In this document: positions 4,041-47,412 of the stretch, piece after piece | Layout: every line of letters begins with the position of its first letter | Position numbering within the stretch: position 1 is the first letter of the stretch | Assembly: GCA_035297365.1 (NCBI GenBank) | Contig: DATGZA010000014.1 | Span: 210,959-274,958 of the forward strand | DNA length: 64,000 bases | Direction: 5' to 3' | From: Nitrososphaeraceae archaeon | GTDB taxonomy: Archaea > Thermoproteota > Nitrososphaeria > Nitrososphaerales > Nitrososphaeraceae | Notes under the pieces: generated by a model | Database searches by the model: none | Seen by the model: only the letters and a program-made list of their open reading frames with translations | Told to the model about the DNA's origin: nothing | Made by a program: the position numbers and the translations under genes

Positions 4041-4451
4041 TCAAATTTGATTAATTCCACTTCTTTTATTTGCTATAATATTTTCAATTTCCTTCAATTC
4101 GGTGCTGTTAATCAACATATCACCTTTACTTTGACTATCGATGTCTTCTATACGTGTACTTCCTCTAGGTAGATCTTCTAATACATTTACTGCCAAAGTT
4201 TCGGCCTTAATTTGTGATTGTGCTAATTCTATTGATGCTTGATTAATTAGATCTGCATTACTTATCATTGATGACTGATTATTAATAAAGAGAACTCTGA
4301 AATTTTCTGGCAGGTAGGATAATAGAGAATCTCGTTGTTGACCTGTAACAAATGACTCCGTTAACATTATGTGTATAGATAAAATAGATAAAATAAAAAT
4401 CAAGAATAATGATAATAAATTTAAATTTGTAAAAACTTTCTTTCTTATCAT
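4041..4451 (-). CDS. Hypothetical membrane-anchored/secreted protein
   Basis: 136-aa ORF with N-terminal hydrophobic segment; TATA-like tatatatata upstream. Confidence 0.55.
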   Translation of the reverse strand: MIRKKVFTNLNLLSLFLIFILSILSIHIMLTESFVTGQQRDSLLSYLPENFRVLFINNQSSMISNADLINQASIELAQSQIKAETLAVNVLEDLPRGSTRIEDIDSQSKGDMLINSTELKEIENIIANKRSGINQI

Positions 4452-5666: not shown

Positions 5667-5786
5667 TTAGGCATTTATAATAATTGGTTTTTCTTCCACT
5701 TTTTCTGTGTCATCCTCTTCTTGCTTTTTAACCAATTTCTTGTATTTTAGTTCGATCTTCTCTGGTATTTCGTAATCGAAACACAT
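5667..5786 (-). CDS. 39-aa microprotein MCFDYEIPEKIELKYKKLVKKQEEDDTEKVEEKPIIINA (below the ORF-track cutoff)
   Basis: Clean ATG-TAA frame, TATA-like element ~30 nt upstream, T-tract immediately after the stop. Confidence 0.6.
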   Translation of the reverse strand: MCFDYEIPEKIELKYKKLVKKQEEDDTEKVEEKPIIINA

Positions 5787-6538
5787 ACAAATATACTTGA
5801 ACTCGGTTTCTAATAAATATTATATTATTCGGGTTGATTTATACCAGTATTTTTTTATCTGTCTGCTTTGTTATGACTTTCAAAATTCATTTTAGGCTTA
5901 TTGATAGCCTTTGATAGGCTTTCTATTGACGTTGAAATCTTTAGGTATAAATTTCAAGTCAAATAGTCACCTCACGCATCTATTGAAAATATAAACATAA
6001 AATTCATCTTAGAATTTTATCGAATGAAAAATATACGATTATCCATCGACATTTGTCATCCCGTTTCTGTCTGTAGTCGTAATTAAGTAACATCTTGCCT
6101 ATTACAAAGTCAACAACTTGGATACTATCCGAAAGTTAAAAACGGGTATTTTATCTGGAAATATACCGTTTAATATGCTTTTCATCTATACTACAGTTAG
6201 TTATTTTAGTGAAAGTCAATTATCGTAAAGGGAAAATGATACGATTTATTTTAGATCTATGTGTTCTGCAATAAACCCGAACATTAAAAGATCATTGTTA
6301 CGGATGAAGTGAGACAAAAGCCAAATTTCATGTTAATGGTATTTCGTATTAGAATGTGAAATTTATGCAAATGAAAATAATACCTTCAGATATTTATAAT
6401 CAACTCAATATACTTCATAATTATGAATTAATAAATATTATATTAGAGACCGAAACTTAATGAAATCCGCTTTACCGAAAAAATTGATATGTTTGTATAA
6501 AATTATTTTAATATTTTTCACAGTATTGTGACTATACA

Positions 6539-8080: not shown

Positions 8081-8518
8081 ATGACCGCATCAAACATAGT
8101 TACTAAATATATTACATTGTCTTCTAGAGGAGAAAATGATATTATTGATATCACAAGTAACGTTAACAAGATATTACTAGAAAGTCAAATGAAAAATGGA
8201 ATAGTAACACTTTTTGTGGTTGGTTCTACAGCAGCAGTAACTACCATAGAGTATGAACCAGGTCTGAGAAAGGATTTTCCCAGAATGTTGGAACGAATAG
8301 CATCTAAAGATATTGAATATGAACATGATAATACATGGCATGATGGCAATGGACACGCACATGTAAGAGCGTCGTTAATTGGTCCCAGTTTAACCGTCCC
8401 TTTCGTTGATGGTAAATTCACCCTTGGAACTTGGCAGCAGATTGTTTTTCTAGAATTGGATACAAGAAGTAGAAATAGAAAAATTGTAGTTCAATTAATT
8501 GGAAGTAAAATTTCCTAA
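8081..8518 (+). CDS. yjbQ: YjbQ/UPF0047 family protein (secondary thiamine-phosphate synthase-like)
   Basis: STAAVTTIEYEPGL, HDGNGHAHVRASLIG, LGTWQQI. Confidence 0.9.
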   Translation: MTASNIVTKYITLSSRGENDIIDITSNVNKILLESQMKNGIVTLFVVGSTAAVTTIEYEPGLRKDFPRMLERIASKDIEYEHDNTWHDGNGHAHVRASLIGPSLTVPFVDGKFTLGTWQQIVFLELDTRSRNRKIVVQLIGSKIS

Positions 8519-8694
8519 ATTTAAAATTGTTTGTGACTATATTTTCTATTTCATGATATGATTTTTTCGTGTTCTGATGTCTTTTGCTTTAATGTCGTAT
8601 AAAAATATGGATCCGTATCTTTTGTTCAATTTATCCTCTCCCCCTTATCCAAGAGTATTACACAATTTATCTACTATCTATATGAAAATACTTC

Positions 8695-9645
8695 ATGGAC
8701 CTATGGTATGATAATTCTGCTCCTGTGATCTCCAGTAAGAAAGGAAAATCACTGCTTCACAATTTTTTCGTTTATGGCAAAGAGGGATTGACTATTAACC
8801 CATATCAGGGATGTCATCACAGATGTGGGTATTGTTATGCAACTTATGATTGGTCTCCAGAGTTCTTCGATCATATCTATGCCAAAATAAATGCTGCAGA
8901 TCTATTGTATGAACAAATTAGAAAAAACAAAATCAAAATTTCTCATCCTGTAATGATTTCCTCAGCAACCGATGCTTATCAACCAGCCGAGTTAAAGTAC
9001 TCTATAACTCGACAATGTGTACAAGTATTACAAAAATTTGGAATTCCGTATTACATTTTTACCAAGTCGATAATAATTGAGAGAGATTTGGAGTTACACA
9101 AACGATATTCTGATAAATGTTTCATAGTGTGGTCAATTACTACTTGCAATGAGGACGTAAAAAGAATAATCGAACCAGGTACGCCTACATTTGACTCTTT
9201 ATTTAAGGTAATCGAAAAATTCACAAATTCTGAAATCCAGTGTGTTGTTAATATTGATCCTATTCTACCTCTAATTACTGATTCAAAAAGCGATCTAGAA
9301 AAAATTTTAGATACCGCTGTCAACAGTGGAGTCAATTTTATTAGCGGATCAATTTTAAGGCTTAGATCCGACATTTGGGAGAGATTGAAATCTATCCTGC
9401 ACCTTCTGGATATGTCAGATGCAAAAAAACAATATGAACAAATTTACAACATTAAAGAACCGATAAAAGTAAAGATCAGTGTGAATGCCGAAAATAAATA
9501 CTCATACACAATTTTAAACATGTTGATGAGAGAATGCGATAAAAGAAATCTGAAATATGGATTTCCCAATCTGAAACCTCAGGAAAATGACCGTTCATCT
9601 GCAGATAATTTAAAAATGGTTACTCTTTCCGATTTCATAAAGTAA
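8695..9645 (+). CDS. Radical SAM protein, SPL/Rv2578c-like family
   Basis: INPYQGCHHRCGYCYA (CxxxCxxC), ISSATDAYQPAE, TKS, IEPG. Confidence 0.88.
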   Translation: MDLWYDNSAPVISSKKGKSLLHNFFVYGKEGLTINPYQGCHHRCGYCYATYDWSPEFFDHIYAKINAADLLYEQIRKNKIKISHPVMISSATDAYQPAELKYSITRQCVQVLQKFGIPYYIFTKSIIIERDLELHKRYSDKCFIVWSITTCNEDVKRIIEPGTPTFDSLFKVIEKFTNSEIQCVVNIDPILPLITDSKSDLEKILDTAVNSGVNFISGSILRLRSDIWERLKSILHLLDMSDAKKQYEQIYNIKEPIKVKISVNAENKYSYTILNMLMRECDKRNLKYGFPNLKPQENDRSSADNLKMVTLSDFIK

Positions 9646-9689
9646 AAAACAGAGGACCCACTTGATAAAGTAACAAACAGAGGACCCAC
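9637..9689. repeat. 25-bp direct repeat, 28-bp period
   Basis: ataaagtaa(a/c)aaacagaggacccac at 9637-9661 and 9665-9689, 24/25 identical. Confidence 0.8.
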
Positions 9690-9755
9690 ATGAATTTGTA
9701 TATGAAAAAGTGTTAATAAAACATAAAATAGCCGATAATTAATATAAAATAATTA

Positions 9756-10346
9756 TTGAAGTCATATAACATAGATAACTTTCAATTAATGTTGATTATA
9801 TTATCGGTTTCATTAATCTTGATTCTAGGTAATACTGGAATAATAAATGAGGCATTAGCAATTTTTGAGAGCAAAGCAGATCAAAGTTTTATTACATATG
9901 ATAATAGTAAAATGAGATTTAGTCTCATGTATCCATCTAATTGGCAGATGGAAGAACATTTTAATGGCTTTGTCACTATTACTGCTCCAATTGAAGATTA
10001 CACACAAAACCGGTTTCCAGCAGGACTGGGAATTTTTCCACTAAAATTAGAATCACAAAATATTTCTCTGACAGCATTAAAGAACGTTCATCTTAAGAAT
10101 TTAACCAGCAATCTTAAAGAATTTCAATTGTTGGGATCTAATCAAATTATTCTTCCAGGAAATTATCCCGCACAGCAAATAGTTTTTACTGCACTGGACG
10201 GGGATGAAATCAGAAAATCGATGCAAATTATTGTTAAAAATCAAGACAGAGCATATCTTATTACATACAAAGCTGATTTGAACAAGTATGATAGTTATTT
10301 CCAAACGATTCAAAAAATCCTTGAAACTCTTGTCTTTACAAAATGA
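9756..10346 (+). CDS. PsbP-like extracytoplasmic protein
   Basis: Signal/anchor; TYDNSKMRFSLMYPSNW, AYLITY, YDSYFQTIQKILET. Confidence 0.7.
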   Translation: MKSYNIDNFQLMLIILSVSLILILGNTGIINEALAIFESKADQSFITYDNSKMRFSLMYPSNWQMEEHFNGFVTITAPIEDYTQNRFPAGLGIFPLKLESQNISLTALKNVHLKNLTSNLKEFQLLGSNQIILPGNYPAQQIVFTALDGDEIRKSMQIIVKNQDRAYLITYKADLNKYDSYFQTIQKILETLVFTK

Positions 10347-32567: not shown

Positions 32568-33311
32568 TTAATTACTTTTTGCTATACCATAAGTTCTATG
32601 AATTACATTTTCAGACAATACGTTATTAGGATATCCTTGAGATATTAACTCTTTGTTCAAACATACTACCCAGGGTAACTTCCTAGCCACACCATCAATA
32701 TCATGTGTAGTAATTATGATAGTAATTCCTTTATTGTTCAGCTCGGTTAATGTTTGTACAAGATTTTCCTTTGACATAGGATCTAGCCCAGAGGTCGGTT
32801 CATCTAAAATCAATATATCGGGATTATGAATCAGAGCTCTTGCTAAAAATGCACGTTTTTGTTCTCCCCCTGATAATTCTCTTATTTGTCTATCCGAATA
32901 ATCATCTAATTCGAGGTCATGCAGGATGGAATTTATTTCTTCTTTTGTTCTACTGTTTATCCATGGAAAACGACCAGAGTTGTTCCAAATACCCATAGCT
33001 ACTAATTCTCTTACTGTAACAGGAAAGTCCCATTCCACACTTTCGACCTGTGGAGAGTAGCCTATAGTAGGAAATGTAACCCCATTATGTTTTGAATTCT
33101 TTTCAAACATGATTGTTCCATTCCATGGTCGAATTAATCCTAAAATCAATTTCAGTAAAGTGGTCTTTCCTGCACCGCTAGGACCCAGTAAACCCACAAA
33201 ACTACCTTTTAAAAAATCTAATGAAATGCCCTCGATTATTGGATCATGGAATTTATATCCAAATGATAAATTTCTTATTGTTATTATACTAGGTATATTA
33301 TTGGAAGCCAT
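32568..33311 (-). CDS. Metal ABC transporter ATP-binding protein (ZnuC-type)
   Basis: GPSGAGKT, DFPVTV, LSGGE, LDEPT, THD. Confidence 0.92.
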   Translation of the reverse strand: MASNNIPSIITIRNLSFGYKFHDPIIEGISLDFLKGSFVGLLGPSGAGKTTLLKLILGLIRPWNGTIMFEKNSKHNGVTFPTIGYSPQVESVEWDFPVTVRELVAMGIWNNSGRFPWINSRTKEEINSILHDLELDDYSDRQIRELSGGEQKRAFLARALIHNPDILILDEPTSGLDPMSKENLVQTLTELNNKGITIIITTHDIDGVARKLPWVVCLNKELISQGYPNNVLSENVIHRTYGIAKSN

Positions 33312-33391: not shown

Positions 33392-34396
33392 CTACAATGA
33401 TAAGTCCTTTGAAGCGATTTCCTTTAAAGGCTCTATATTTCCTCCTAGAGGTAGTATCATATTTCTCATATTTTCCAACATCATTCCTATATACGAATGA
33501 TGAGGATCTCCTTCTTTTCCAGGTAAATCATCATCACTCAAGGTTTCTACTATGGTAACATTAGCTTCTTTTGCTATTTGATCTATCATATTGGTAGGAA
33601 AAACCTCAGATGCAAATAATGCTGGGATACTCTCAGTACGGATTTGGTCGATCAATCTCACAAGATCTTGGGGGGACGGTTCACCAAAGTCAGAAGGTTG
33701 TATTGCTCCAATTACAGTCATCCCGTACCTTGGAGCAAAATATGCCCAAGAATCATGATATGTAAGCAATTTTCGGTTTTCTTTGGGTATTGTGTCCACA
33801 GATTTTCTTATACCCTCATCAAGTTCTTTAAGTAGTTCATTATATCTTTGATAATTTGAGATATAATATTTAGAATTGTTCGGGTCTATCTCTATTAATT
33901 TATCCGTTGTAATATTTGCAAATTTCATGGCATATTCTACGTTCAACCAAAGGTGTGGATTAGGATCTCCTTTTTCTTTTGGAAAACTGAAATCGAAAAT
34001 CCAGTCATCTTTTGTTACGGTGTTATCTGCTAGCTTTACCAATTGTATTTTGGGATTTTTTGTAATAATATTTTTCGCAATATTCTCTATACTTTTTTCA
34101 AGATTCAGACCATCTATGACTATGATATCGGCATTGCCTATTTTTATTGCATCAGAAGGAACTGGTTCAAATGTATGAGAATTTACACCTTCAGGAACCA
34201 GACCAACTAGGTTTATTCTTTCTCCGCCGATATTTTTCACAATGTCCGTTATAGGTGCAACTGATGTTACTACATTCAATTTTTTCTTGCCTATATCTGA
34301 AACTTCTATTTCTTGGCCCAAAGCATAATTGGAAAAAACAAAAACGATCGAGATCAAATGAATAAAGGCAATTCCAATACCCGACGATCTATTCAT
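33392..34396 (-). CDS. Metal ABC transporter substrate-binding protein (ZnuA/TroA family)
   Basis: NSHTFEP, NPHLW, TYHDSW, LSDD; likely start MNRSSG at 34396. Confidence 0.9.
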   Translation of the reverse strand: MNRSSGIGIAFIHLISIVFVFSNYALGQEIEVSDIGKKKLNVVTSVAPITDIVKNIGGERINLVGLVPEGVNSHTFEPVPSDAIKIGNADIIVIDGLNLEKSIENIAKNIITKNPKIQLVKLADNTVTKDDWIFDFSFPKEKGDPNPHLWLNVEYAMKFANITTDKLIEIDPNNSKYYISNYQRYNELLKELDEGIRKSVDTIPKENRKLLTYHDSWAYFAPRYGMTVIGAIQPSDFGEPSPQDLVRLIDQIRTESIPALFASEVFPTNMIDQIAKEANVTIVETLSDDDLPGKEGDPHHSYIGMMLENMRNMILPLGGNIEPLKEIASKDLSL

Positions 34397-34415
34397 AAAA
34401 AATTTAATTATTGCG

Positions 34416-34445
34416 AGTATTAAAAATTTACTAAATAGTAATACT
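34416..34445. promoter_or_regulatory. NikR-type operator AGTATTA-N16-TAATACT overlapping the TATA box of the ABC operon
   Basis: Perfect 7-bp arms with a 16-bp spacer; E. coli NikR site is GTATGA-N16-TCATAC; nikR is adjacent. Confidence 0.75.
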
Positions 34446-34597
34446 TTATTCATAATAATCCGATTTAGAGAACAATTGAATCAAACTAAATTTACAATAA
34501 AAGTACAAACCGTGTTATTCATTATACAAATAAATTTATGGTCAGCTGTTACCCCTTCATTTATTTCAAATTTATTCATATAGAATTAATAATGTTT

Positions 34598-35044
34598 TTA
34601 TTTAATGCCAACATAATGCATCTTTATACTTTTTATACCTCTGTTCTCAGAGATAACTTTCATAAAACTTTTCATTCTTCTTATTTTTCCTCTTAGAATG
34701 ATCGTTTCAAGACAGTTATCATGATCCAAGTGTAAATGTGTAGTTGTTACTATAATATCGTTATATTCATGCTGACTCTTTATAGATTCTCTATCATTAC
34801 CGAAGAGATGATTATCGTATAAAACTACTAATGCACCTGCGCCTTCTTGAACTTCTTTTTGTTCCCATTCATTATTATTAATAAATTCATAAAGTGCTTT
34901 TTGAATTGCTTTTGATCTATCTGAAAACCCTGCATTATTCATGGATTTATCAAATTGATCAAGTAAAGTAGGAGATAATGAAATGCTAATTCTAGCAACT
35001 TGATCTTTCTTTTTAACCTCATTTTTGTTCGAGTGCTTAGGCAA
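34598..35044 (-). CDS. nikR: Nickel-responsive regulator NikR
   Basis: RHH domain RISISL...DRSKAI; Ni ligands QH...HLHLDHDNCLE. Confidence 0.9.
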   Translation of the reverse strand: MPKHSNKNEVKKKDQVARISISLSPTLLDQFDKSMNNAGFSDRSKAIQKALYEFINNNEWEQKEVQEGAGALVVLYDNHLFGNDRESIKSQHEYNDIIVTTTHLHLDHDNCLETIILRGKIRRMKSFMKVISENRGIKSIKMHYVGIK

Positions 35045-35478: not shown

Positions 35479-36594
35479 ATGGGAATAGCAGATTTTGTGT
35501 CCGGTAATCCGGGATTGGACTTCTTTTATATTCTGTTTAATGGAATTTCGGAAGTTCCACTCTTCAGTTCTCCGGTCACTGGTATCCTGATACTAATTGG
35601 AGTATTTATCGCGTCAAGAAATGCTGGAATAATGATGGTAATTTCTGGTCTAATAGGTGCGGGGATGGCTATATTGCTAGGCGCTCCATATGGACTTGTT
35701 GCATTCGGTCTTTTTGGTTATAACTCTATACTCACTGGTATGGCTTTTTGGTCTGGACCTTTCGTTAAATCTAACAAGGCAACATTCTTCATATCGATAT
35801 TTGGTGCAGCTGTTACGGCAGTAGTCTGGATGGCAATGGGTCATGTGATGGGAGACATGTTTGTTCTACATGGTTTATCTGCATCTTGGGCAATTCCTGG
35901 CTTTACGTCATCATTCATCTTTACAACTTGGACATTGATGTACGCCACAAAAAGATTTGGACATGATATTTGGCCTGAACCTGCACCCGCGCCACATGAA
36001 CTGTTGATAAAAGGTAGTGGAAACCCTGTTCTGGTGCATGAAGAGAATTTCAAATGGACAGCAGGAGAATTTATAAAATCAACGTTAAAAGGTGTTTCCC
36101 AGGTTACATTTGTAGAAAACTGGAAGACTGGAATCTTTTGGGTGGTTGGGCTTACGTTAGCGTTTGAATTGGCACCATTTATAACTGGCCAAGATAGACC
36201 TTGGTGGACAAATGGTTATACTGCACAATGGAATGAATTTTCTCCGCTTTATTTGGGTGGCTTGATGGCTTTTGTTGGTTCTGCAGTGGGGGCTGGAATG
36301 GCAATATTGACCAAATTGCCAACAGGCGAGATAAGAGCAGGTCTACATGGGTTTAACCAAGTATTGGTAATGATCGCTCTCACCAGTTTTCTGCCTCTTA
36401 CGCCACAATCTGTATTGATTGCATTACTTGCTACCGTCTCGTGTGGTTTTGTGATGCCGGCGATGCAACGATTCTTTGGAATGTGGGGATTGCCAGCGTT
36501 AACAGGTCCGTTCGTTTTCACTGCATGGGTCTTCTTACTTGGGATATCTGGCTTCTCAAATATACCTGCTGGGATCGGTTGGTCACGACCATAG
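35479..36594 (+). CDS. Urea transporter (UT/Yut family)
   Basis: Two internal repeats: GISEV...GLFGYN...PGFTSSF and GVSQV...GLHGFN...PALTGPF; many TMs; upstream of urease. Confidence 0.88.
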   Translation: MGIADFVSGNPGLDFFYILFNGISEVPLFSSPVTGILILIGVFIASRNAGIMMVISGLIGAGMAILLGAPYGLVAFGLFGYNSILTGMAFWSGPFVKSNKATFFISIFGAAVTAVVWMAMGHVMGDMFVLHGLSASWAIPGFTSSFIFTTWTLMYATKRFGHDIWPEPAPAPHELLIKGSGNPVLVHEENFKWTAGEFIKSTLKGVSQVTFVENWKTGIFWVVGLTLAFELAPFITGQDRPWWTNGYTAQWNEFSPLYLGGLMAFVGSAVGAGMAILTKLPTGEIRAGLHGFNQVLVMIALTSFLPLTPQSVLIALLATVSCGFVMPAMQRFFGMWGLPALTGPFVFTAWVFLLGISGFSNIPAGIGWSRP

Positions 36595-36628: not shown

Positions 36629-37219
36629 GTGAAAAAAATGAACATACAGGAATTTAATCAATTTTTGAAACTTACAAGCGAAGGAAGAGAGAATTCCGAT
36701 ATCCAAAAAATCAAGATGTTTATAGATTGGTGCAATAAAAACAACTACGAAGAAATACTTCTAAGACTTAGTTCCGAAAAAGATGCAGGTTTAGGAGATA
36801 ACCGGATAATAGACTTTACAACAAAACGAATTATTATTACCAAAAAAAGTTTTATAAAAAAATTTCTTGATGTTGGTTATGTAGCTGGGATGGGTCCATT
36901 TCCATACATAATATTATCCGAAAAAAAACACACATCAAAAATAAAGGATTCAGCAAAAGTAGACGTCAGAAAAATTATGAACAGGTCAGATTTTGAATAT
37001 TCTTTAGATTATGATTTAGTAAATCAAGTTATTGTAAGCCAAGGTTCTAGTTCTGTAGTTAGAAATATGTTTGGCTCATTTATAGCAAAAAATTACTTGA
37101 CTATAATTACGGATAAGCAAAGGTATGAGTATATTTTGCCAGCTAAGAAGAATGGTGATTTTTATAGAATGACACATTGGCTTCAGGTTCTTCCAGTAAA
37201 GGTTTCAGTCGTATATTGA
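36629..37219 (+). CDS. Hypothetical protein in the urea locus (possible PH-like fold)
   Basis: 196-aa ORF; IDFTTKRIII motif. Confidence 0.7.
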   Translation: MKKMNIQEFNQFLKLTSEGRENSDIQKIKMFIDWCNKNNYEEILLRLSSEKDAGLGDNRIIDFTTKRIIITKKSFIKKFLDVGYVAGMGPFPYIILSEKKHTSKIKDSAKVDVRKIMNRSDFEYSLDYDLVNQVIVSQGSSSVVRNMFGSFIAKNYLTIITDKQRYEYILPAKKNGDFYRMTHWLQVLPVKVSVVY

Positions 37220-37316: not shown

Positions 37317-37619
37317 ATGATGTTAGTTCCACGTGAAGTGGATAAAATGATGATTTGGACCGCAGCACAAATTGCTGAAGGCCGTAAAAAAAGGGGAATA
37401 AAACTCAATCATCCGGAAACTGTTGCATATATAGCGAACTATGTAGTCGAGGGCGCAAGAGAAGGAAAAAGTGTGGCAGAATTAATGAAATCTGCTAGAG
37501 AGGTTCTAACAAGGAATGATGTTATGGAAGGGGTACCGGAACTGATTCATACTGTTCAGGTTGAAGCTACTTTTCCAGATGGTACCAAGTTAGTTACCGT
37601 TCATGATCCAGTTCAATAG
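37317..37619 (+). CDS. ureA: Urease subunit gamma
   Basis: [30 protein letters not shown]. Confidence 0.98.
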
Positions 37620-37689: not shown

Positions 37690-38064
37690 ATGATTCCAGG
37701 CGAATATATTTTGTCTTCGGAGCCTGTAATCTGTAATCCAAATTATAAAACTGTCAAGGTTACTGTAAAGAATACTGGGGACAGGGCATGCCAGATAGGA
37801 TCTCATACACACTTTTTTGAAGTAAATAGGGCTTTAGATTTTCCAAGAGAAAAAACATATGGATACAGATTGAACATACCTGCTGGCACTTCAATTAGAT
37901 TTGAACCAGGTGATTCACGAGAAGTAGAGTTATGTGAACTAGGTGGTAAACGAATTGTATATGGATTTAACGGTCTGACGATGGGCGGTCTCAATTCGTC
38001 TGTCATAAAGGATGCTGCCATGGAAAAAGCGACGAAACTTGGATACGGTGGGATGAGCAAATAA
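37690..38064 (+). CDS. ureB: Urease subunit beta
   Basis: MIPGE, NTGDR, QIGSHTHFFE, RLNIPAGTSIRFEPG. Confidence 0.98.
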   Translation: MIPGEYILSSEPVICNPNYKTVKVTVKNTGDRACQIGSHTHFFEVNRALDFPREKTYGYRLNIPAGTSIRFEPGDSREVELCELGGKRIVYGFNGLTMGGLNSSVIKDAAMEKATKLGYGGMSK

Positions 38065-38086: not shown

Positions 38087-39814
38087 ATGGTTTTGAAATT
38101 AACTAGAAAACAATATACCGACCTCTTTGGACCGTCAAAAGGTGACAAAATAAGACTTGCAGATACTGACATAATTATCGAAGTTGAAAAGGACTTGATC
38201 TCCCAAGGAGATGAATGTGTCTTTGGTGGGGGCAAAACGATAAGAGATGGACTGGCGCAAGCATCAGGTATTACCAATGCAAACGGTGCTTTAGACTTTG
38301 TCATAACAAATGCCGTAGTTTTAGATCCTATATTGGGGATTGTAAAGGCAGACATTGGTATCAAGGATGGAAAGATAGCAGGAATAGGAAATTCAGGTAA
38401 CCCATATACTATGGACCATGTTAATACGAACATGATTGTCTCAGCGTGTACAGAGGCAACTGCGGGTGAACATACAATTTGTACTCCTGGTCACTGGGAT
38501 ACCCACGTACACATGATCTCTCCACAACAGTACGTGGATGCAATTAGCAACGGAATCACTACTATGATAGGGGGTGGAACTGGACCTGCAGATGGAACAA
38601 ATGCAACAACATGCACACCAGGATCCTTCAATATTAGTAGGATGATGGAGAGTGTAGAGGATATCCCAGTCAATTGGGGTTTCTTGGGCAAAGGAAATGA
38701 TTCACATCCATCACTTGCCACACAGATAGAACAAATTGAAGCTGGGGCATGTGGATTAAAAGATCATGAAGACTGGGGAACAACTGCTGCAGTTTTAGAC
38801 GCATCTCTTAGGGCAGTAGACATGACTGATACACAATTAGCTATACATACCGATTCAATAAACGAATGTGGTTACGTTGAAGACACAATTAATGCGATAG
38901 ATGGTAGGACACTCCATACATATCACACTGAGGGTGCAGGTGGTGGACATGCTCCAGATATTATGAAAATCGCAGGTGAGCAGTTTGCACTCCCCTCATC
39001 AACTAATCCAACTAGACCATATACTGTGAATACGGTTGATGAACACCTTGATATGCTGATGTTTTGTCATCACCTCAATCCAGCAGTACCTGAGGATGTG
39101 GCTTTTGCAGAGTCAAGAATCAGAGCAGAGACAATTGCTGCAGAAGATGTATTGCATGACGAGGGAGTGTTGAGCATGTATTCATCTGATAGCCAAGCTA
39201 TGGGTAGAATTGGTGAAGTTGTAATCAGGGCATGGCAAACCGCTGACAAGATGAAGAAAATGAAAGGAAGATTGACAGAAGAAACAGGAGACAATGATAA
39301 TCTTAGAGCTAAAAGGTATATTGCAAAGACTACCATCAATCCTGCTATAACGCATGGTGCCGCTGATATCCTTGGGTCTCTAGAAGTAGGAAAATATGCT
39401 GATATCGTTATGTACCAAACACCCTTTTTTGGAGTCAAGCCAAAAATGATTTTTAAAGGTGGTTTCATTGCTTGGTCAATCATGGGTGATCCTAATGCGT
39501 CCATCCCAACGCCTGAACCTGTCTATTATAGACCAATGTTTGGTGCTATGGGTAAGGCGGTAAAAAGAACGTCCTTAACTTTATCATCAAAGGCAGCCGT
39601 AAATCTTGGAGTGAGAGAAAAACTAGGATTAGAAAAGGTTCTACATCCGGTACACAATTGCAGAAACATTGGCAAAAAAGATATGGTCTGGAACGATAAA
39701 ACTCCAGAGATTACTATAGATCCTGAGACATACGAGGTAAAACTGGACGGAAAAATAGCTACAGTTGACCCTGCAAAAGAATTATCCCTAGCACAAAGAT
39801 ACTTCATGGCATAA
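38087..39814 (+). CDS. ureC: Urease subunit alpha
   Basis: [43 protein letters not shown]. Confidence 0.99.
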
Positions 39815-39899
39815 GAGATAAAACTATACCGACATCTACTATTTTTTATTTTATTTTCTTTTTTATCGAGATATATACTTCATAGTAGGATAATATTTT

Positions 39900-41456
39900 A
39901 TGTCTAATCCAAATTATGGAGTTTGGAGACCAATTGCAGAAAATGTAGAGTTTAATGCTCTTGAATCTAATTCACAAGCAGTAATGGCTGTTGCAGAAAC
40001 AGTCAGAACAACTTTAGGTCCAAAAGGTCTCGATAAACTCTTGATAGATCAAGCTATGAATCGACACGTTTCAAACGATGGAGTTACCATTTTACTCTCT
40101 TTAAGGGCCATACATCCAGTTGCAAGAATGATAGTTGAAATTGCAGAAAGACAAGAACAGCTAGTCGGTGACGGTACAACTACCGCGGTTGTAATGGCTT
40201 CTGAAATGATAAAAGAAGGGAAGAGGCTAGTAAAGGAACTAGGAGTGCATCCAACCAAAGTAGTGGAAGGGATAGATAATGGTGTTAAACAAGCATGCAA
40301 ACTTTTAGAAAAACAAGCAAAGAGTATATCATTGAATGATGACGAGCTTGAACAAGTAATAAGAACATCTCTCAATTCTAAATTAGACGGTGCAAATTTA
40401 TCTACGTTGGTTATCAAATCCATTAGAACCATTGGAGAAAATTCTGTCTATAACTCATCTTTTGATTTTGATAAATCAATTAAAGTGATAAGAAAAACAA
40501 ACGTTTCTGACACAGTATTCAATGGTGTTGTGTTGGAAAGAAAAAGACTCGACACAGAGATGCCACTCAAAATTGATAAACCTAAGATAATGATAGTAAA
40601 ACTAGATTTAAAACCAGTTAAAGAATCTTGGTTGAAAGAAAATAATCGTTATGAAGAAATACTGACCATGGAAAATGATAGACTTTCAAAGTCTAAAAAG
40701 ATAGTTGATGAAATTGTGTCTACTGGAGCCAACACACTTTTGATAGCTTCTCCAGAAATAGATGAGGTTATAGAAAATCTTTTAGTGTCTAAAAAGATCT
40801 TTGCTGTCAGGATCTCTTCTGATGAAATTGAATTTCTGTCTCGATATCTTGGAACACGACCTGTGAGAATGATAGATGATCTAAAAGGGGACACTATCAT
40901 TGGAAATGCTGACTGCATTCATGAAAATGAAGATGAAGGACTAATTTACCTTGAAAATGGTTCTGGAAAAAATATTGTTTCCATAATAGTATCAGGAACT
41001 ACGAAAGAGACATCTCTTGAGAGGTGGAGATCAGTAATAGATGGAGTTAATGCTGCTGAAGCCGCCCTTAATAAAGGTGTTGTAGCAGGGGGTGGAGCAG
41101 CAGAATTACATGTTATTGAAAAGTTAAAAGGTTTGAGGATGAAAGGCCTAGAGCAGGTAGGAGTTGAAGTAGTAGCATCAGCGCTTGAAAGCATAATGAG
41201 ACAAATTTTAACAAATGCTGGCTTTAATGGTCTAGAAAAAGTGATGGCTGCAAAAGCATCAAAACAAAATATTGGTGTTGATATAGATAGTGGTGATCTA
41301 GTGGATATGTGTGAAAAGGGGGTTATCGATCCTTTATTGGTTAAGATAATGGCCCTCGAAGCTGCTGGAGAAATTTCAAAATCTGTCCTTAGAATTGATA
41401 GAAATCTTGCCGCTGAAGACCTAAGTCAACAGGCCGTTTCTGAAACAAGGAGGTAA
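39900..41456 (+). CDS. Divergent group II chaperonin (thermosome-like) inside the urease operon
   Basis: TTLGPKGLDK, NDGVTIL, GDGTTT, VAGGGAAE, GVIDP, VLRID. Confidence 0.9.
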   Translation: MSNPNYGVWRPIAENVEFNALESNSQAVMAVAETVRTTLGPKGLDKLLIDQAMNRHVSNDGVTILLSLRAIHPVARMIVEIAERQEQLVGDGTTTAVVMASEMIKEGKRLVKELGVHPTKVVEGIDNGVKQACKLLEKQAKSISLNDDELEQVIRTSLNSKLDGANLSTLVIKSIRTIGENSVYNSSFDFDKSIKVIRKTNVSDTVFNGVVLERKRLDTEMPLKIDKPKIMIVKLDLKPVKESWLKENNRYEEILTMENDRLSKSKKIVDEIVSTGANTLLIASPEIDEVIENLLVSKKIFAVRISSDEIEFLSRYLGTRPVRMIDDLKGDTIIGNADCIHENEDEGLIYLENGSGKNIVSIIVSGTTKETSLERWRSVIDGVNAAEAALNKGVVAGGGAAELHVIEKLKGLRMKGLEQVGVEVVASALESIMRQILTNAGFNGLEKVMAAKASKQNIGVDIDSGDLVDMCEKGVIDPLLVKIMALEAAGEISKSVLRIDRNLAAEDLSQQAVSETRR

Positions 41457-41465
41457 AAGAGAGAA

Positions 41466-41858
41466 GTGCAAATTCGTCACTGTGTAGAAAAAGATAATGT
41501 AAATGAACAGATGATAATCAAGGATCCCACAAAAATAAGACACGTAGTTATTTTTGGAGGAAAGATAAAGTCAATGTCAGGTTTTATTGATCCTGCTTCT
41601 CATCTTAATATTGATTATCCATTACACAAGGTAACAAAATGTGTTATTGCGAAGAAATTTGAGTTAGGTTCTGATATTCTTTTCTCTAATAACGGGTTTA
41701 TCTTTGCCTTGGTGATGTCTTCACATTTTGATAATTATGGATACCTAGACTATACAAAAAATCTTTCTGAAATGATTGAAAAAGTAAATGATCTTAAGAC
41801 TTCTATATCAGTTAAAAAAGTATTGGAACAAGAAAACACAACAGAGCAGGTGGAGTAA
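41466..41858 (+). CDS. Hypothetical protein in the urease operon
   Basis: 130-aa ORF with <10-nt gaps to the chaperonin and ureE. Confidence 0.75.
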   Translation: MQIRHCVEKDNVNEQMIIKDPTKIRHVVIFGGKIKSMSGFIDPASHLNIDYPLHKVTKCVIAKKFELGSDILFSNNGFIFALVMSSHFDNYGYLDYTKNLSEMIEKVNDLKTSISVKKVLEQENTTEQVE

Positions 41859-41866
41859 TAAAAAAA

Positions 41867-42382
41867 ATGATAACTATCAATAACATAATTGGTAATTTAA
41901 CGAGAGATTCTAAATTAAAAGAAAAATATGAATTGATGCTTAGAAAAGGTAACTGTGAAAAAGTAAAAATCAATAGGTTGGAATCCCAAAGGCTCAGAAT
42001 GAGAAAGAATACAGATAAGGGATCTGATGTTATTTTTGTTTTTGACCATAATCCACAACTTCGACATGAGGATGTTGTATTTTCTGATGATGAGAAGATG
42101 ATTATTGTTGAATTAGAACCAGAATACGTCGGTATAATTACATTGAAAAATTATAATACCAATGAAGATATGTTTTCAATGTCGATAAAAATTGGTCATA
42201 CACTGGGAAATTTACACAGACCAATTCGGGTAACAAAAAATCAAGTATATTTTCCATTACAAGCAGAGACAGAAATTGAAATGCTTACAAAACTCTTTTC
42301 ATCATTCAGTCAATTTCTTGATATCAATACTGATTATATGGTCTTTGAACCAGAAGAAGGACACCATATTCATGAACATTGA
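41867..42382 (+). CDS. ureE: Urease accessory protein UreE
   Basis: RMRKNTDKG, IGHTLGNLH, FEPEEGHHIHEH. Confidence 0.9.
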   Translation: MITINNIIGNLTRDSKLKEKYELMLRKGNCEKVKINRLESQRLRMRKNTDKGSDVIFVFDHNPQLRHEDVVFSDDEKMIIVELEPEYVGIITLKNYNTNEDMFSMSIKIGHTLGNLHRPIRVTKNQVYFPLQAETEIEMLTKLFSSFSQFLDINTDYMVFEPEEGHHIHEH

Positions 42383-43136
42383 TGCCATCGATCTTCAGTT
42401 AGAACAGATAAGCATGATGCAGTTAGGGGACTCTTTTTTTCCAACGGGGATGTATACGACCTCAAGTGGATTGGAGTCTCTCTTTTACAACAGAAAGATA
42501 AAAGATAAACAAAAAATTTTAGAATTTATTTCCGTATCTCTGAAATACCAAATAGGTCCAGCAGACTGTACAGCACTCTCTAACGCTTATCATTTTGCTA
42601 AAATTTCAGATTTGCAAGGCGTAATAGAGATAGACAAATTACTTTTTTCTATGAAGTTAGTTAAGGAGATACGGGATGCTTCGGCAAGGTCCGGAACACA
42701 ATTGTTAAGTTGTGTATCAAGTTTCGTTAATGAAACTATTACCGACGATGTCGCAACAAATTTAATTCATGATAATATTCTTACTCCTGCCAAACTGGTT
42801 TCATCCTATTATAATGCGATAAAGAATAAAACTGCTCATGGTATTTATCCAGTTGCATTAGCGGTAGCGTCAAATGCATTAAACATAAGAAAAGAAAGGG
42901 CTTGCATCCTTTTATTGTACGGATTTACGGTAAGTATAGTAGGTGCGGCACTTAGATTGGGAATGTTACAACATTTTGAAGGACAGCAAATAATTCATTC
43001 CTTAAAACCATTGATGGTAGAGGTTATAAAAACAAATATTGATAGACCTTTTTCTCATATGTGGCAATTTTCTCCTGGGATCGATATTTTGCAGATTACA
43101 CATGAGAGGATGGATTCAAAAATGTTTATTACATAA
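42372..43136 (+). CDS. ureF: Urease accessory protein UreF
   Basis: DSFFPTG, SSGLE, ALRL, HERMDSKMF; likely start ATG 42372. Confidence 0.92.
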   Translation: MNIDAIDLQLEQISMMQLGDSFFPTGMYTTSSGLESLFYNRKIKDKQKILEFISVSLKYQIGPADCTALSNAYHFAKISDLQGVIEIDKLLFSMKLVKEIRDASARSGTQLLSCVSSFVNETITDDVATNLIHDNILTPAKLVSSYYNAIKNKTAHGIYPVALAVASNALNIRKERACILLLYGFTVSIVGAALRLGMLQHFEGQQIIHSLKPLMVEVIKTNIDRPFSHMWQFSPGIDILQITHERMDSKMFIT

Positions 43137-43157: not shown

Positions 43158-43823
43158 ATGACTGTTAAAAGAATTCCTCGAGTTGGTATCGGTGGACCTG
43201 TCGGATCAGGAAAAACAATGTTAATTGAACAATTTGTTCCGTTATTAAGTCAAAAAGGATATAAGACGGCAATTGTCTCCAACGATGTAGTATCGAAAAT
43301 AGATGCTGATCGGATGCGAAGGAACTTGGCATCCGAACAAGGGCTACTACCAGAAAGTCTGGTAATAGGACTTGCTACGGGTGGATGTCCACATACTGCC
43401 GTAAGGGAGGATCCTTCTATGAATATTTCTGTGGTTGAAGAAATAGAATCCAAACATAATGAAGATCTTGATTTGATAATAATTGAAAGCGGTGGTGATA
43501 ATATAACAACAACGTTTAGTCCTGCATTGGCTGATTACTTTATCTATATAATAGATGTCTCTAGTGGAGATAAATATCCCAGAAAACGTGGTCTTGGAAT
43601 AGAGAGTTGTGATCTTTTGGTGATTAATAAAATTGATCTTGCTCCACTTATAGGTGCAGATCTTAAAGTAATGGAGAAGGATGCTATTGTCGTCAGAAAA
43701 AACAAACCATTTCTATTTGTTAATTGCAAAACTGGTCAGGGAGTGAAAGAAGTTGCAGAACATATTATAAAAGATGTTTTGTTTGAAGCACCCCCAAAAA
43801 CTCTTCTAAAGAAAAATAATTAG
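43158..43823 (+). CDS. ureG: Urease accessory GTPase UreG
   Basis: GGPVGSGKT, TGGCPH, ESGGDN, NKID. Confidence 0.97.
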   Translation: MTVKRIPRVGIGGPVGSGKTMLIEQFVPLLSQKGYKTAIVSNDVVSKIDADRMRRNLASEQGLLPESLVIGLATGGCPHTAVREDPSMNISVVEEIESKHNEDLDLIIIESGGDNITTTFSPALADYFIYIIDVSSGDKYPRKRGLGIESCDLLVINKIDLAPLIGADLKVMEKDAIVVRKNKPFLFVNCKTGQGVKEVAEHIIKDVLFEAPPKTLLKKNN

Positions 43824-43846: not shown

Positions 43847-44782
43847 ATGATACCTCTTGATGTAGATTATTTCATCCCAAAGGATATTCCCAGAGAGGTT
43901 TTATCTTATGAAGCAGTTTTGACTCAATTAGGGGTAGGTAAAGCAGGAAAGCTTGGAACATTGATTTTGTCCCTTGAAAAGGATCAAAATCTAAATAGAA
44001 CAATAATAAAAGAACAATACTCTAAAGTCCCTCTTTTTGTTCAACGAGCGCTATACCTTGAAGAAAGTCTGCCATCTATGGCATATATCTATATAATGTC
44101 TCCTTCTGGAGGAATTCTCCAAGGTGACCGGTATAGAATAGATATCAAGATAGGTGATAGTGCTTTAGCTCATATGACCACCCAGGGAGCTACAAGACTT
44201 TATAGAATGGATAAAAACTATGCAACTCAGATAGTCAATATAACTTTGGATAGTAACAGTTATTTTGAATTTGTGCCCGACCAGATAATACCTTATAGAG
44301 ATTCTAGGTTCTATCAATCTGTAACTTTGAATATTCATGAGGAGGCTACCATGATATATTCTGAGACAATAGTTCCAGGACGTATGGCTATGGGTGAATA
44401 CTTTAATTACGATATTTGTTATTTAAAAATGATTGGAAAGAACCAAGAGGGCGCATTGCGATTTATTGACACTGCATTGTTACAACCCAAGAAAAATGAT
44501 CTAAAGATCCTTGGAGTTCTTGAAGAATTTAATATGTTATGCAATACATACATCCTCACACCACCCAGATATGTTGAGAAATTGAATGATACTATAAATG
44601 ATAAAATATCTCTATTTCCAGAGGTCAGAGGTGGATGCTCTGTGATGCCTGATGGTTCAGGAATAGCTATTAGAATCTTGGGAAACACAATAGATAGATT
44701 AAAAGAGGTTACATATTCTATATTAGGGATATGTAGACATGAAATCCTAAATGCGAAGTTTAGTGGAATTCGCAAAAACTAA
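43847..44782 (+). CDS. ureD: Urease accessory protein UreD
   Basis: SPSGGILQGD, TTQGATRLY, PDQIIPY, PGR. Confidence 0.93.
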   Translation: MIPLDVDYFIPKDIPREVLSYEAVLTQLGVGKAGKLGTLILSLEKDQNLNRTIIKEQYSKVPLFVQRALYLEESLPSMAYIYIMSPSGGILQGDRYRIDIKIGDSALAHMTTQGATRLYRMDKNYATQIVNITLDSNSYFEFVPDQIIPYRDSRFYQSVTLNIHEEATMIYSETIVPGRMAMGEYFNYDICYLKMIGKNQEGALRFIDTALLQPKKNDLKILGVLEEFNMLCNTYILTPPRYVEKLNDTINDKISLFPEVRGGCSVMPDGSGIAIRILGNTIDRLKEVTYSILGICRHEILNAKFSGIRKN

Positions 44783-45030: not shown

Positions 45031-45303
45031 CACTTATTTCGAACAACAAAATTATTATTAAATGATCTGTTTATACAGGTAATTCAGTTGAACAATCAAA
45101 TATTATATGAAATTTCAATATATTTTCTAAATTATGCAATCTACTTGATGATATTACTTATTAATATTCTTAGTACATTATTTGCATACTTTGATAATGA
45201 TATCAGGTATCTATTGATTAGTTTTAAATGAAAAATACAGTGATGAATATATTTATGATAAATGAAGAGTCTTCGGAGGTTACTCTTTTTGGATGATAAC
45301 TAT

Positions 45304-45783
45304 ATGAAATTGCAAAAGAACCCTAGTGATTCAAAAGCAGAATCCACTATTATGATGTTGCCATCAGACGCAAATCCTAAGGGAAACGTCTTCGGAGGAT
45401 CTATTCTAAAACATGTTGATTTAATTGCGGGTATTGTCGCTAAAAGACATGCCAACCAGTCAAATATTGTTACTGCAAGTATGGATAGAGTAACTTTCAT
45501 AAAACCCATATTTATTGGAAATGCTCTCATCCTTTCGGCAAGAATTAATTATGTTAAAAGATCATCTATGGAAATAGAAGTAAATATTTATTCAGAAGAT
45601 CTTGATTATAATACTAGAGATCATGCTGGTAAAGCATTTGTGACTATGGTTGCACTTGATAAATACGGTAAACCGATGGAAGTACCTCAACTCCTTTTAG
45701 AAACTGAAGGCGATAAAACTCGATTCAAAGAAGGGGAGGAAAGAATGAGAGTTAGGCTGAAAGAATCAGGTAAATTTAAATGA
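45304..45783 (+). CDS. Acyl-CoA thioesterase (hotdog fold, YciA-like)
   Basis: PSDANPKGNVFGG, VTASMD, SSMEI, MVALD; start could be 45262. Confidence 0.9.
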   Translation: MKLQKNPSDSKAESTIMMLPSDANPKGNVFGGSILKHVDLIAGIVAKRHANQSNIVTASMDRVTFIKPIFIGNALILSARINYVKRSSMEIEVNIYSEDLDYNTRDHAGKAFVTMVALDKYGKPMEVPQLLLETEGDKTRFKEGEERMRVRLKESGKFK

Positions 45784-45981
45784 ACAGATATATTTTCAAC
45801 ATATTCAACTCTTGATAAATCCCTACAAAAGATGTTCATTTCTACCCTGAACATTTTTTTTGTTTGTTTTATAGGAATTGAACTAAGACTTGTCTTATGG
45901 ATAAAAGCCATATAAGATTATTTATAAAAATTTTGCAAAATTGTTTATAATAAATGTTGTATATAATCAATTAGTATAACG

Positions 45982-46533
45982 ATGCATCAAAAAAAATTAT
46001 TGTTAATTATGACTACCTTTGTTACTTCGATATTTTTCTTCTATGGAGGATTAAATGCGGCTTTCTCAGCATCTGGTGATAATTTTAGTGCAAATCTGGA
46101 TGGAGCACAAGAAATACCGCCTGTAACTACTGAAGGAACAGGTCTTGCCTCTTTGCAAATGCAGGATAATACCATAACATATCAGGTAAACGTCATGAAT
46201 ACCGATAAAATAACTGGAATTCACATCCATAAAGGAACAAGTGGAGAAAATGGGGACGTACTTGTCAGTTTGTATACCCGAAATACAGATGACGATGATA
46301 TCTCATCTTTACCTAAGAACATCGTTCCAAAAATTGATGTTGCATCAACTGTTCAGCGATCTAGTCAATTCTCATCAAGTGGTAACTTTCATGATTATGA
46401 TCTGCAAGGCTCTCTAGAAGGAAAAACGTTAGAAGATCTAGTTTCTCTGATGCAAAGTGGACAAACATATGTAAATGTACATACAACAAGTTATCCTGAT
46501 GGTGAGATTAGAGGACAAATATCGAGCAAGTAG
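45982..46533 (+). CDS. Secreted CHRD-domain protein
   Basis: LDGAQEIPPV, IHIH, YVNVHT, PDGEIRGQI. Confidence 0.9.
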   Translation: MHQKKLLLIMTTFVTSIFFFYGGLNAAFSASGDNFSANLDGAQEIPPVTTEGTGLASLQMQDNTITYQVNVMNTDKITGIHIHKGTSGENGDVLVSLYTRNTDDDDISSLPKNIVPKIDVASTVQRSSQFSSSGNFHDYDLQGSLEGKTLEDLVSLMQSGQTYVNVHTTSYPDGEIRGQISSK

Positions 46534-46575
46534 ATTGAAATTAAATATATCTCCCAAAGTATTCTGTATAATATC

Positions 46576-47412
46576 TTGGGAAATGAAGGGTTAAGAGTTG
46601 ACGAATCTGTTCAATTAACTAAAAGTGATGGTAGGAAAGTCCTATTTGATTTTGATAAGATTATATCCACATGTATAAGAGCCGGTGCTAGTAGAAATCT
46701 AGCTGAAGAGATTGCACAAAAAGTATTTGAACAATCTTATGATGGCATGACTACAAAAGAGGTATATAAAAAAATACTTCGATTTCTAAAAGACGAACAT
46801 TATCCAAAGATACAAAATAGGTATAGACTACGCGAATCAATAATGTCCCTTGGTCCCACCGGCTTTATTTTCGAATCCTTTGTTGGTCAGATTCTTGAAA
46901 AACACGGATATAGCATTGAATCTATAAGATCCAAAGTCAAAGGTCAATGTGTAGAACACGAAATTGATCTAATTGCACGTTCTTCAACAAATAACCGATA
47001 TATGATAGAATGCAAATATCATAACATTGCGGGAATATTTACTGGTCTGAAAGAGACACTATACACTCACGCAAGGTTTCTTGATCTAAAAGAGGCGTTC
47101 GATCGGGAGATGCTTGTGAGTAATACACAGATTTCTGGGGATGCTATCCAATACGCAAAATGTGTTGGACAAGATGTATTATCGTGGCGTTATCCAAAAG
47201 ATAATGGATTAGAAAAGATGATTGAAGATCAAGGACTTTATCCAGTAACTCTTTTACATTTAAATAAAAATGAGTTAGATGCCTTCTCAAAAATTAATTT
47301 CTTATTAGCAAGAAATCTTCTCAATGTAAATATTGATGAATTATCTAGGCAGACAGGAATTTCAACGAACCGGTTAACCACACTTCAAAGTAAGATTAAT
47401 CAGATTCTGTAG
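46576..47412 (+). CDS. ATP-cone + Mrr-like PD-(D/E)XK nuclease domain protein
   Basis: TKSDGRKVLFDFDKI ATP cone; FESFV, HEID, IECKYH. Confidence 0.8.
   Translation: MGNEGLRVDESVQLTKSDGRKVLFDFDKIISTCIRAGASRNLAEEIAQKVFEQSYDGMTTKEVYKKILRFLKDEHYPKIQNRYRLRESIMSLGPTGFIFESFVGQILEKHGYSIESIRSKVKGQCVEHEIDLIARSSTNNRYMIECKYHNIAGIFTGLKETLYTHARFLDLKEAFDREMLVSNTQISGDAIQYAKCVGQDVLSWRYPKDNGLEKMIEDQGLYPVTLLHLNKNELDAFSKINFLLARNLLNVNIDELSRQTGISTNRLTTLQSKINQIL

Follow-up and report, generated by a model that had tools for sequence, protein, structure and literature searches.

What are a chaperonin gene and a small unnamed gene doing in the middle of a urease cluster? Urease maturation is textbook nickel insertion by UreDEFG, and the two genes come in addition to these. 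The question is raised by a 64,000-nucleotide stretch of DNA from a Nitrososphaeraceae archaeon (GenBank assembly GCA_035297365.1, contig DATGZA010000014.1), hereafter the window, in whose coordinates positions are given. Between ureC and ureE, the window carries P0001, which encodes a chaperonin, and P0002, hereafter P2, which encodes a 130-residue protein; a third gene, P0003, encodes 196 residues. A preliminary description made from the sequence alone had reported the first two as tightly packed between ureC and ureE, and this holds: both open reading frames (ORFs) are exact and ureE follows (Table 1), with gaps of 85 bp between ureC and the chaperonin gene, 9 bp between the chaperonin gene and P2, and 8 bp between P2 and ureE. 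On balance, we favor the view that these genes belong to an extended urease maturation module beyond UreDEFG, made up of a dedicated chaperonin and a new accessory factor, which is probably concerned with nickel. The chaperonin is an already known feature, defined here as a urease-linked group II lineage that reaches bacteria and methanogens, and P2 is the new element.

P0001 is a divergent group II chaperonin

Profile matches and conserved motifs place P0001 among the group II chaperonins, as a divergent member whose ATP motifs are intact. Its match to Pfam Cpn60_TCP1 spans profile positions 1-484 of 490 and scores 354 bits (cut-off 34.3); the three housekeeping thermosomes of the same genome reach 607-647 bits. 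It is 32-37% identical to housekeeping thermosomes. On the NCBIfam models TIGR02339 (thermosome_arch), NF041082 and NF041083 it scores 311, 304 and 297 bits for cut-offs of 671, 450 and 400; the 311 bits against the thermosome_arch cut-off of 671 indicate that the protein is truly divergent. The best natural matches among solved structures are thermosomes (1a6d chain A, 232 bits), which rank above 5x9u, a bacterial archaeal-like "group III" chaperonin (190 bits), and CCT subunits (at most 180 bits). Proteins 95-98% identical to it are labelled Nitrososphaeraceae or Nitrososphaerales proteins from metagenome-assembled genomes (MAGs).

The preliminary description had read intact ATP motifs, a shortened and altered lid and an unusual segment in this protein. 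The motifs are there: GPKG lies inside LGPKGLDK (residues 39-46) and GDGTTT at residues 90-95, and both are kept, along with NDG, GGGA and the catalytic Asp (IDG), in 29 members of the clade from ammonia-oxidizing archaea (AOA), 4 bacterial ones and 2 others. The lid segment is altered, its sequence being replaced (KLDLKPVKESWLKE..NNRYEE), but its shortening is slight, 2 residues relative to the genome's three housekeeping thermosomes. Larger losses concern a ~7-residue N-terminal strand (housekeeping ~PVLILKEG) and the entire GGM-rich C-terminal tail, and several deletions of 1-5 residues are also found. The segment VSGTTKETSLERWRSVIDG occupies residues 364-382. The unusual segment corresponds to a region where the thermosome RGG(S/T)...E.ER has become SG(T)TKETS(L/Q)ERWR, with KETS(L/Q)ERWR as a clade signature, and is clade-wide; P0001's altered features are common to the 29 AOA and 4 bacterial members. 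The most divergent urease-linked chaperonins have a lid cut by 9 residues (Methanoregula, L064 ~8292-9767, minus strand) and 19 residues (G085, L122 2068-3480, plus strand); the open frame of the Methanoregula gene spans 714 codons and may include an N-terminal extension. Compared with archaeal thermosomes (PF00118; TIGR02339), P0001 has the same full Cpn60_TCP1 architecture, nucleotide-binding motifs and catalytic Asp, and a segment of almost full length aligns with their built-in lid; its clade, however, stands apart, extends to bacteria and lies in urease clusters in every case.

The chaperonin lineage is found beside urease genes

We searched 301 Nitrososphaeria genomes, the window's own included, with P0001, P2 and UreC. 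Full-length chaperonin orthologues, 69-91% identical, were present in 25 of them, the window's and 24 others (family f1: genera g1 5/5, g2 8/8, g5 8/14, g8 1/1; family f3: 2/9), and in none of the 181 genomes of f2; the f2 tallies take in G132, G230 and G282, flagged unpublished, and the ureC tally takes in G282. The remaining matches are at most 37% identical, bar one at 42% (G085). In 24 of the 25 genomes (the window's, G000, and 23 others) the genes ureC, chaperonin and P2 adjoin one another on the same strand; contig ends split them in G292. The preliminary description had supposed a client-specific folding or Ni-insertion chaperone system; consistent with a link to urease, the orthologue occurs only with an adjoining specific type of ureC (25/25), and among the 301 genomes those without ureC yielded no intact copy, the sole find there being a decayed fragment in G166. 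There, in a Nitrosocaldaceae-like locus (L123, G166:C12, 6575-9784), residues 218-451 of the chaperonin run into ureF-ureG-ureD; neither P2 nor ureE was found at this decayed cluster, nor ureC in the genome. A ~2.4-kb contig in another genus's bin (G274:C111, L030) is 100% identical to the window's ureC and chaperonin start, which is probably mis-binning and not gene transfer.

Two chaperonin trees (36 and 33 rows, quick searches, four GroELs as outgroup) were then inferred. They omit 13-19 of the 29 AOA orthologues, which are nearly identical, as well as a duplicate row and the broken Methanomassiliicoccaceae gene. The urease-linked chaperonins, from AOA, Scalindua-type bacteria, Methanoregula and G085, formed one clade in both (22/22 and 16/16 sequences), with supports of 95 and 96 in the Shimodaira-Hasegawa-like approximate likelihood ratio test (SH-aLRT). 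All housekeeping thermosomes formed another clade (support 99), which comprised three sequences from the window's genome, three from G305, two from family f8 and a single one from each of the Methanoregula and Methanomassiliicoccaceae genomes. Forcing the AOA copies to group with Nitrososphaeria thermosomes cost 248 log-likelihood units and was rejected by the approximately unbiased (AU) test (p-AU 6.5e-51, for a group named after the tree had been seen). The grouping with housekeeping subunits that would have argued against a special chaperonin was thus not recovered. Every clade member examined adjoins urease genes and, as far as gene neighborhoods tell, the clade is found only beside them, in Nitrososphaeraceae, Nitrosocaldus-like archaea, Methanoregula and Scalindua; this common setting does not depend on the tree. 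In keeping with its bacterial nature, the Scalindua genome G301 has no match at thermosome level and three genes of GroEL type.

We also observed, next to urease genes, a chaperonin of a second kind (L111 7955-9622, plus strand; L114 ~3378-4928 and L120 ~4405-5910, minus strand). It adjoins ureABC genes with the other UreC class described below (class B), in Nitrososphaeraceae genomes without the window's type or with a second ureABC set. It reaches 489 bits on Cpn60_TCP1 and stands on a long branch as a paralogue of the housekeeping thermosomes of the family; where these have GGM repeats, the C-terminal tail of this protein is histidine-rich. Near it, L111 also has genes for a NicO-like transporter and an arginase-family protein. 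Orthologues, either full-length or partial, were seen in ~18-21 of the 41 family genomes searched (including G341, flagged unpublished), and in none of the four genomes of the window's genus searched, the window's own among them.

The preliminary description had suspected that the arrangement might already have been noted in Nitrososphaerales, and for the chaperonin this is so. According to the passages of Abby et al. (2018, PMC5797428) considered here, the urease loci of Ca. Nitrosocaldus cavascurensis and Nitrososphaerales share a conserved putative chaperonin (Hsp60 homologue, arCOG01257), which was not found in Nitrosopumilales and whose likely role is urease stabilization. P0001 belongs to the same gene family, and the absence from f2 agrees with that report; the downstream 130-residue gene, the bacterial and methanogen clade members and the link to one UreC class go beyond those passages. 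The preliminary description had known of no functional study of the chaperonin, and none came up in the full-text literature, a scope outside which most subscription journals fall. Within the same scope we found no description of the P2 family, and literature on ORFs "between ureC and ureE" concerned only unnamed ORFs in other bacteria.

P2 belongs to an unnamed family tied to ureC

By its conservation, P2 is a real gene: 273 relatives were retrieved from a 90%-clustered database, and the GTG start, which has a GGAGG 12 nt upstream, is confirmed by relatives that start with the same MQIRHCVEE. Searched exhaustively with a family profile, 1.84 billion cluster representatives yielded only 65 proteins at E ≤0.001. 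Family members nearly all have 45-240 residues, and many are of high-GC (guanine plus cytosine) composition. No Pfam or NCBIfam family was matched consistently by any of 36 diverse members; against PDB sequences, a P2 profile retrieved nothing beyond a chance-level row (E 0.092), and the protein atlas gave only unnamed clusters. The label "EscU" carried by some homologues at the Joint Genome Institute was rejected, with Pfam support in 0/36 members. In an alignment of 64 sequences H26, H46 and N48 are invariant, and H5, N11, G39, D42, L47, D50, H54, G68, A81 and G92 are at least 90% conserved. Within the 301 Nitrososphaeria genomes, P2 occurs in the same 25 as the chaperonin, in G085 (39% identity) and as a chance-level row in G081 (E 4.6e-4).

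To place the family in its genomic context, we scanned 185,579 species genomes with patterns from a 10-sequence subset, which yielded 48 P2 loci, and called their genes with the window proteins as tblastn queries and a UreE hidden Markov model. The titles name Chloroflexota, Actinomycetota (including the isolate Raineyella antarctica), a Bacillota MAG, Scalindua and Neomarinimicrobiota and, for Archaea, Bathyarchaeia, Methanoregula, Methanomicrobiales and Methanomassiliicoccaceae. Urease genes were found in 47 of the 48 loci (none in L068). In 37, ureC ends at most 250 bp upstream of P2, often 10-50 bp, an adjacency seen in Chloroflexota, Actinomycetota, Planctomycetota, Bathyarchaeia and methanogens, in most cases with no chaperonin. 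In five loci, labelled Bathyarchaeia or Bathyarchaeota, a chaperonin gene stands between ureC and P2 as in the window, and one of these genomes has three thermosomes plus a divergent copy, like the window's genome. The other six are L042 and L051, where P2 heads ureFGD, L048 and L067, where ureC lies further upstream, L060, at a contig start, and L068. A chaperonin gene was present in only 11 of the 48 loci; it comes after ureD in four Scalindua-type loci, and likewise after ureD, but convergent, in Methanoregula and Methanomassiliicoccaceae. The G085 copy adjoins ureDGF, on a contig other than that of P2. The preliminary description had cast the 130-residue gene as the partner of the chaperonin; since the family sits after ureC across phyla that mostly have no urease-linked chaperonin, P2 is not chaperonin-specific and the idea is not supported in that form. 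Taken together, these comparisons of sequences and loci define P2 as a member of an unnamed family new to description, histidine-bearing, widely distributed and tied to ureC.

We then compared P2 with UreE. UreE follows P2 in 30 of the 48 loci, and in 13 others ureF starts at most 258 bp after P2 with no UreE in the locus. Searched genome-wide with the UreE profile, none of 10 genomes with this P2-ureF order matched (MAGs, of unknown completeness) and 5/5 controls did, 4 of these being outside the profile. Judging from gene order, P2 takes ureE's place in some phyla. The two proteins are alike in size, in evolutionary rate, in having conserved histidines and in the position directly before ureF that P2 occupies in the 13 UreE-less loci; they differ in that no sequence relationship between them was found and P2 lacks the GHxxGNxH motif of UreE, and in that both coexist in 30 loci. 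An apparent P2-UreE fusion in L046, seen as one stop-to-stop frame, was rejected, as translation and ORF lists resolve it into separate genes in different frames of high-GC DNA.

An AlphaFold2 model of P2 built on the 64-sequence alignment (predicted local distance difference test, pLDDT, 90.5; predicted template modeling score, pTM, 0.75) superseded an earlier one built on 27 close sequences (pLDDT 70.9). The predicted protein has a beta-rich core (~residues 2-95) and a long C-terminal helix (96-128). Foldseek against the PDB returned nothing at E ≤0.001 (best E 1.8), VIA-align against 48,161 representative chains gave a best Z of 2.3 for the C-terminal helix only, and a re-check of the Foldseek list gave no match at Z ≥2; no claim of a new fold follows. 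We also considered P2 as a copy of the UreC/amidohydrolase beta domain. This was left unsupported, with only weak Foldseek and VIA rows (NagA, guanine deaminase, urease complex), no Z ≥2 and a P2-UreC hhalign match of 33 columns at the strand before the UreC HxH motif (probability 0.5%). The prediction of a UreC, UreA, UreB and P2 complex scored 0.00, which is no verdict, and was used neither for nor against binding.

Both genes are expressed with urease

Expression data were available for Nitrososphaera viennensis exposed to 3,4-dimethylpyrazole phosphate (DMPP) (Environ Sci Technol 2026, PMC13674081); the values below are from its supplementary files 2 and 3. There, ureC1 is followed by NVIE_014730, a "putative chaperonin Hsp60/Cpn60/TCP-1", and NVIE_014720, a "hypothetical protein", which we infer from gene position, not from sequence, to be the P2 orthologue. 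Over 12 h of DMPP, NVIE_014730 rose steadily from 11.5 to 14.0 and NVIE_014720 from 9.0 to 11.5 on a log2 scale, and both share a time-series cluster with ureA1, ureB1 and ureC1. The comparative log2 fold changes were 1.81 for NVIE_014730 (adjusted p 6.5e-4) and 1.79 for NVIE_014720 (2.3e-4), for 2.5-3.0 in ureA1B1C1. NVIE_014770, a "hypothetical protein" at the position of the 196-residue gene P0003, was induced with ureABC (log2 fold change 2.66). At the protein level, NVIE_014720 was detected in 2/3 replicates, at 6 h and 12 h only, and UreC1 from 3 h (PMC13674081).

We also examined soil metatranscriptome assemblies from four studies for contigs at least 95% alike. The chaperonin gene is partly covered in 4/4 runs and P2 in 2/4, and a 439-nt contig (41115-41553) spans the chaperonin-P2 junction; parts of both genes have no contig cover in single runs, gaps that we do not interpret. 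Two ureABC contigs from two studies both end at 39802. In the AT-rich spacer behind ureC, oligo-T runs (~39842-39866) are followed by ATATATA (39871-39877, 23-29 nt 5' of the chaperonin ATG). The oligo-T runs, this box and the contig ends give a weak hint of an archaeal terminator and an internal promoter between ureC and the chaperonin gene.

One class of UreC accompanies the chaperonin

The UreCs encoded beside the chaperonin are 82-93% identical to that of the window (class A), and all other copies, including those of 13 same-family genomes without the chaperonin and second copies in three chaperonin-bearing genomes, are 64-74% identical (class B). A UreC tree of 46 rows recovers class A (10 rows, support 100) as sister to the AOA class B (11 rows, support 99) with a support of 97, and nests both among the UreCs of P2-bearing bacteria and archaea. 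As the bacterial rows were picked via P2, the tree cannot establish the P2-linked UreCs as one clade. Its topology is compatible with an ancestral AOA cluster that would have had P2 and the chaperonin, followed by their loss on the class B branch. Between classes A and B there are only 32 fixed substitutions, along with an insertion of 2 residues (209-210).

Selection was estimated as the ratio of nonsynonymous to synonymous substitution rates (dN/dS) against two same-genus orthologues. Values, rough because dS exceeds 1 (saturated), are 0.02 for ureC, 0.03-0.05 for the chaperonin gene, 0.04 for ureG, 0.17-0.20 for P2 and 0.18-0.26 for ureE.

Organization of the urease region

The features of the region, whose GC content is ~30-40%, are collected in Table 1. 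Divergent from the urease cluster run the genes for a NikR-like regulator, a ZnuA-family protein and an ABC ATPase, possibly a nickel uptake system; ZnuA and ABC homologues also flank the urease cluster, at ureD, in two related genomes (L126, L131). The urea transporter gene has the same position in 8/8 relatives examined. A P0003 homologue (38-64% identity) holds the same position in 7 of 8 related loci compared and was not found in the remaining one, the Nitrosocaldus-like L127. Downstream of ureD, genes on the plus strand (45262-47412) encode a 4HBT thioesterase, a CHRD-domain protein and an ATP-cone/Mrr_cat restriction-endonuclease-like protein; a thioesterase homologue follows ureD in the same-genus genome L129, and a CHRD-domain homologue lies 3' of ureD in another genome of that genus, L130.

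Table 1. Genes and spacer of the urease region, with positions in the window and the basis of each assignment
Feature	Position	Strand	Basis
ABC ATPase	32568-33311	-	Pfam ABC_tran; divergent from urease cluster
ZnuA-family metal-binding protein	33392-34453	-	Pfam ZnuA; divergent from urease cluster
NikR-like nickel regulator	34598-35044	-	Pfam NikR_C; divergent from urease cluster
Urea transporter (UT family)	35479-36594	+	Pfam PF03253, 178 bits
P0003, 196 aa, between urea transporter and ureA	36629-37219	+	no Pfam/NCBIfam match
ureA	37317-37619	+	Pfam Urease_gamma
ureB	37690-38064	+	Pfam Urease_beta
ureC, class A	38087-39814	+	Pfam Urease_alpha and Amidohydro_1
AT-rich spacer, 85 bp	39815-39899	+	sequence inspection
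P0001, divergent group II chaperonin, 518 aa	39900-41456	+	Pfam Cpn60_TCP1
P2 (P0002), 130 aa, GTG start	41466-41858	+	unnamed urease-cluster family
ureE	41867-42382	+	Pfam UreE_N/UreE_C
ureF, start uncertain	42276-43136	+	Pfam UreF
ureG	43158-43823	+	Pfam cobW
ureD	43847-44782	+	Pfam UreD

Discussion

Linkage, conservation and co-expression most likely point to the following mechanism. An ATP-driven group II chaperonin from a lineage dedicated to urease would fold or hold apo-urease (UreC or UreABC), which would then proceed to assembly and nickel loading. P2, made together with the chaperonin and UreE, would act as an independent urease accessory factor that may bind metal through its conserved histidines, presumably clustered in the structure, and pass nickel to UreE/UreG; in organisms without UreE, it would deliver nickel directly to the UreFGD machinery. 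The client of the chaperonin, the metal bound by P2 and the place of each protein in the pathway are thus proposed from what the genes adjoin, conserve and are expressed with.

Helicobacter pylori offers a precedent in concept, as its urease helpers beyond UreEFGH include the nickel donors HypA/HypB, a GroES (HspA) with a His-rich tail and an Hsp60 that associates with urease. The idea of additional nickel donors plus a chaperonin system is common to both. In contrast, there is no homology: none of the 36 P2 members consistently matches Pfam, HypA included, and the chaperonin is of group II, not GroEL/GroES.

Several observations weigh against this proposal. Among the 301 Nitrososphaeria genomes, 99 of the 124 with ureC have neither gene, so urease in general needs neither, and the class A/B comparison showed no obvious UreC feature that would explain a dependence on the chaperonin. 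The protein has neither the N-terminal strand nor the C-terminal tail of thermosomes, which leaves its assembly into rings putative. The chaperonin clade rests on long branches and could reflect long-branch joins, and the group used in the AU test was chosen with the tree in hand. Contigs from RNA libraries can contain DNA, and they give no expression levels. As for P2, no similarity to any metal-binding family was found, and hhalign against a 17-sequence UreE alignment gave a probability of 0.2% and no relationship. In many bacteria urease is known to be activated without UreE, so that a missing UreE need not be compensated. Finally, the supplementary proteome table for N. viennensis has no entry under the chaperonin's accession (PMC13674081).

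A bolder version of the proposal would make P2 a new-fold family of nickel metallochaperones that replaces UreE in the Chloroflexota-type clusters (ureABC-P2-ureFGD) and acts upstream of UreE elsewhere, with the chaperonin having moved between archaea and bacteria along with the urease cluster, as a client-specific chaperonin comparable to the folding systems dedicated to Rubisco; we regard it as tentative and doubt that it applies in full. It seems unlikely that P2 is instead a fourth urease subunit or a UreC-binding regulator, such as a cap or stabilizer of the active-site flap, and not a metal carrier. A position directly behind ureABC, which P2 has in 37 of 48 loci, often within 10-50 bp of the ureC stop, would suit such a role, as would the appearance of its protein in N. 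viennensis, in the files considered, only once UreC1 accumulates; yet the dN/dS of P2 resembles that of the accessory UreE and not that of the structural UreC, and in L042 and L051 the gene heads ureFGD instead of trailing ureC. We also know of no such fourth subunit in solved ureases, which counts against this role.

We give little credit to P2 as a co-chaperone or adaptor of the urease-linked chaperonin that would recruit UreC or regulate the lid. The two co-occur in 25/25 chaperonin-bearing Nitrososphaeria genomes, with genes 9-21 bp apart in most, and are co-induced in the N. viennensis data considered, but 37 of the 48 P2 loci, which come from other phyla, have no chaperonin gene within 7 kb, and elsewhere the chaperonin is encoded away from P2, after ureD in Scalindua-type loci and on another strand or contig in Methanoregula and G085. 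Finally, it is improbable that P0001 is a general stress chaperonin without a special client that came along with the urease cluster by inheritance or transfer: thermosome paralogues are common in the family (up to 5-6 Cpn60-type matches per genome), but the gene stays urease-linked through three gene orders and two domains of life, was lost or decayed along with ureC in G166, is under strong purifying selection and, in the N. viennensis files considered, is induced together with urease and not with the pattern of the other thermosome genes.

If an extended maturation module is indeed what these genes encode, P2 would add a step to the UreDEFG model, carried out by a family that spans Chloroflexota to methanogens, bears invariant histidines and has no recognized relatives, and its function would name a gene now annotated as "hypothetical" in many genomes. 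The chaperonin would be a rare group II chaperonin dedicated to one enzyme in archaea and anammox-type bacteria, and also a rare bacterial case. Urea is a main source of ammonia for soil ammonia-oxidizing archaea, and what their urease requires is therefore relevant to soil nitrification and, in practice, to what its heterologous expression would need.

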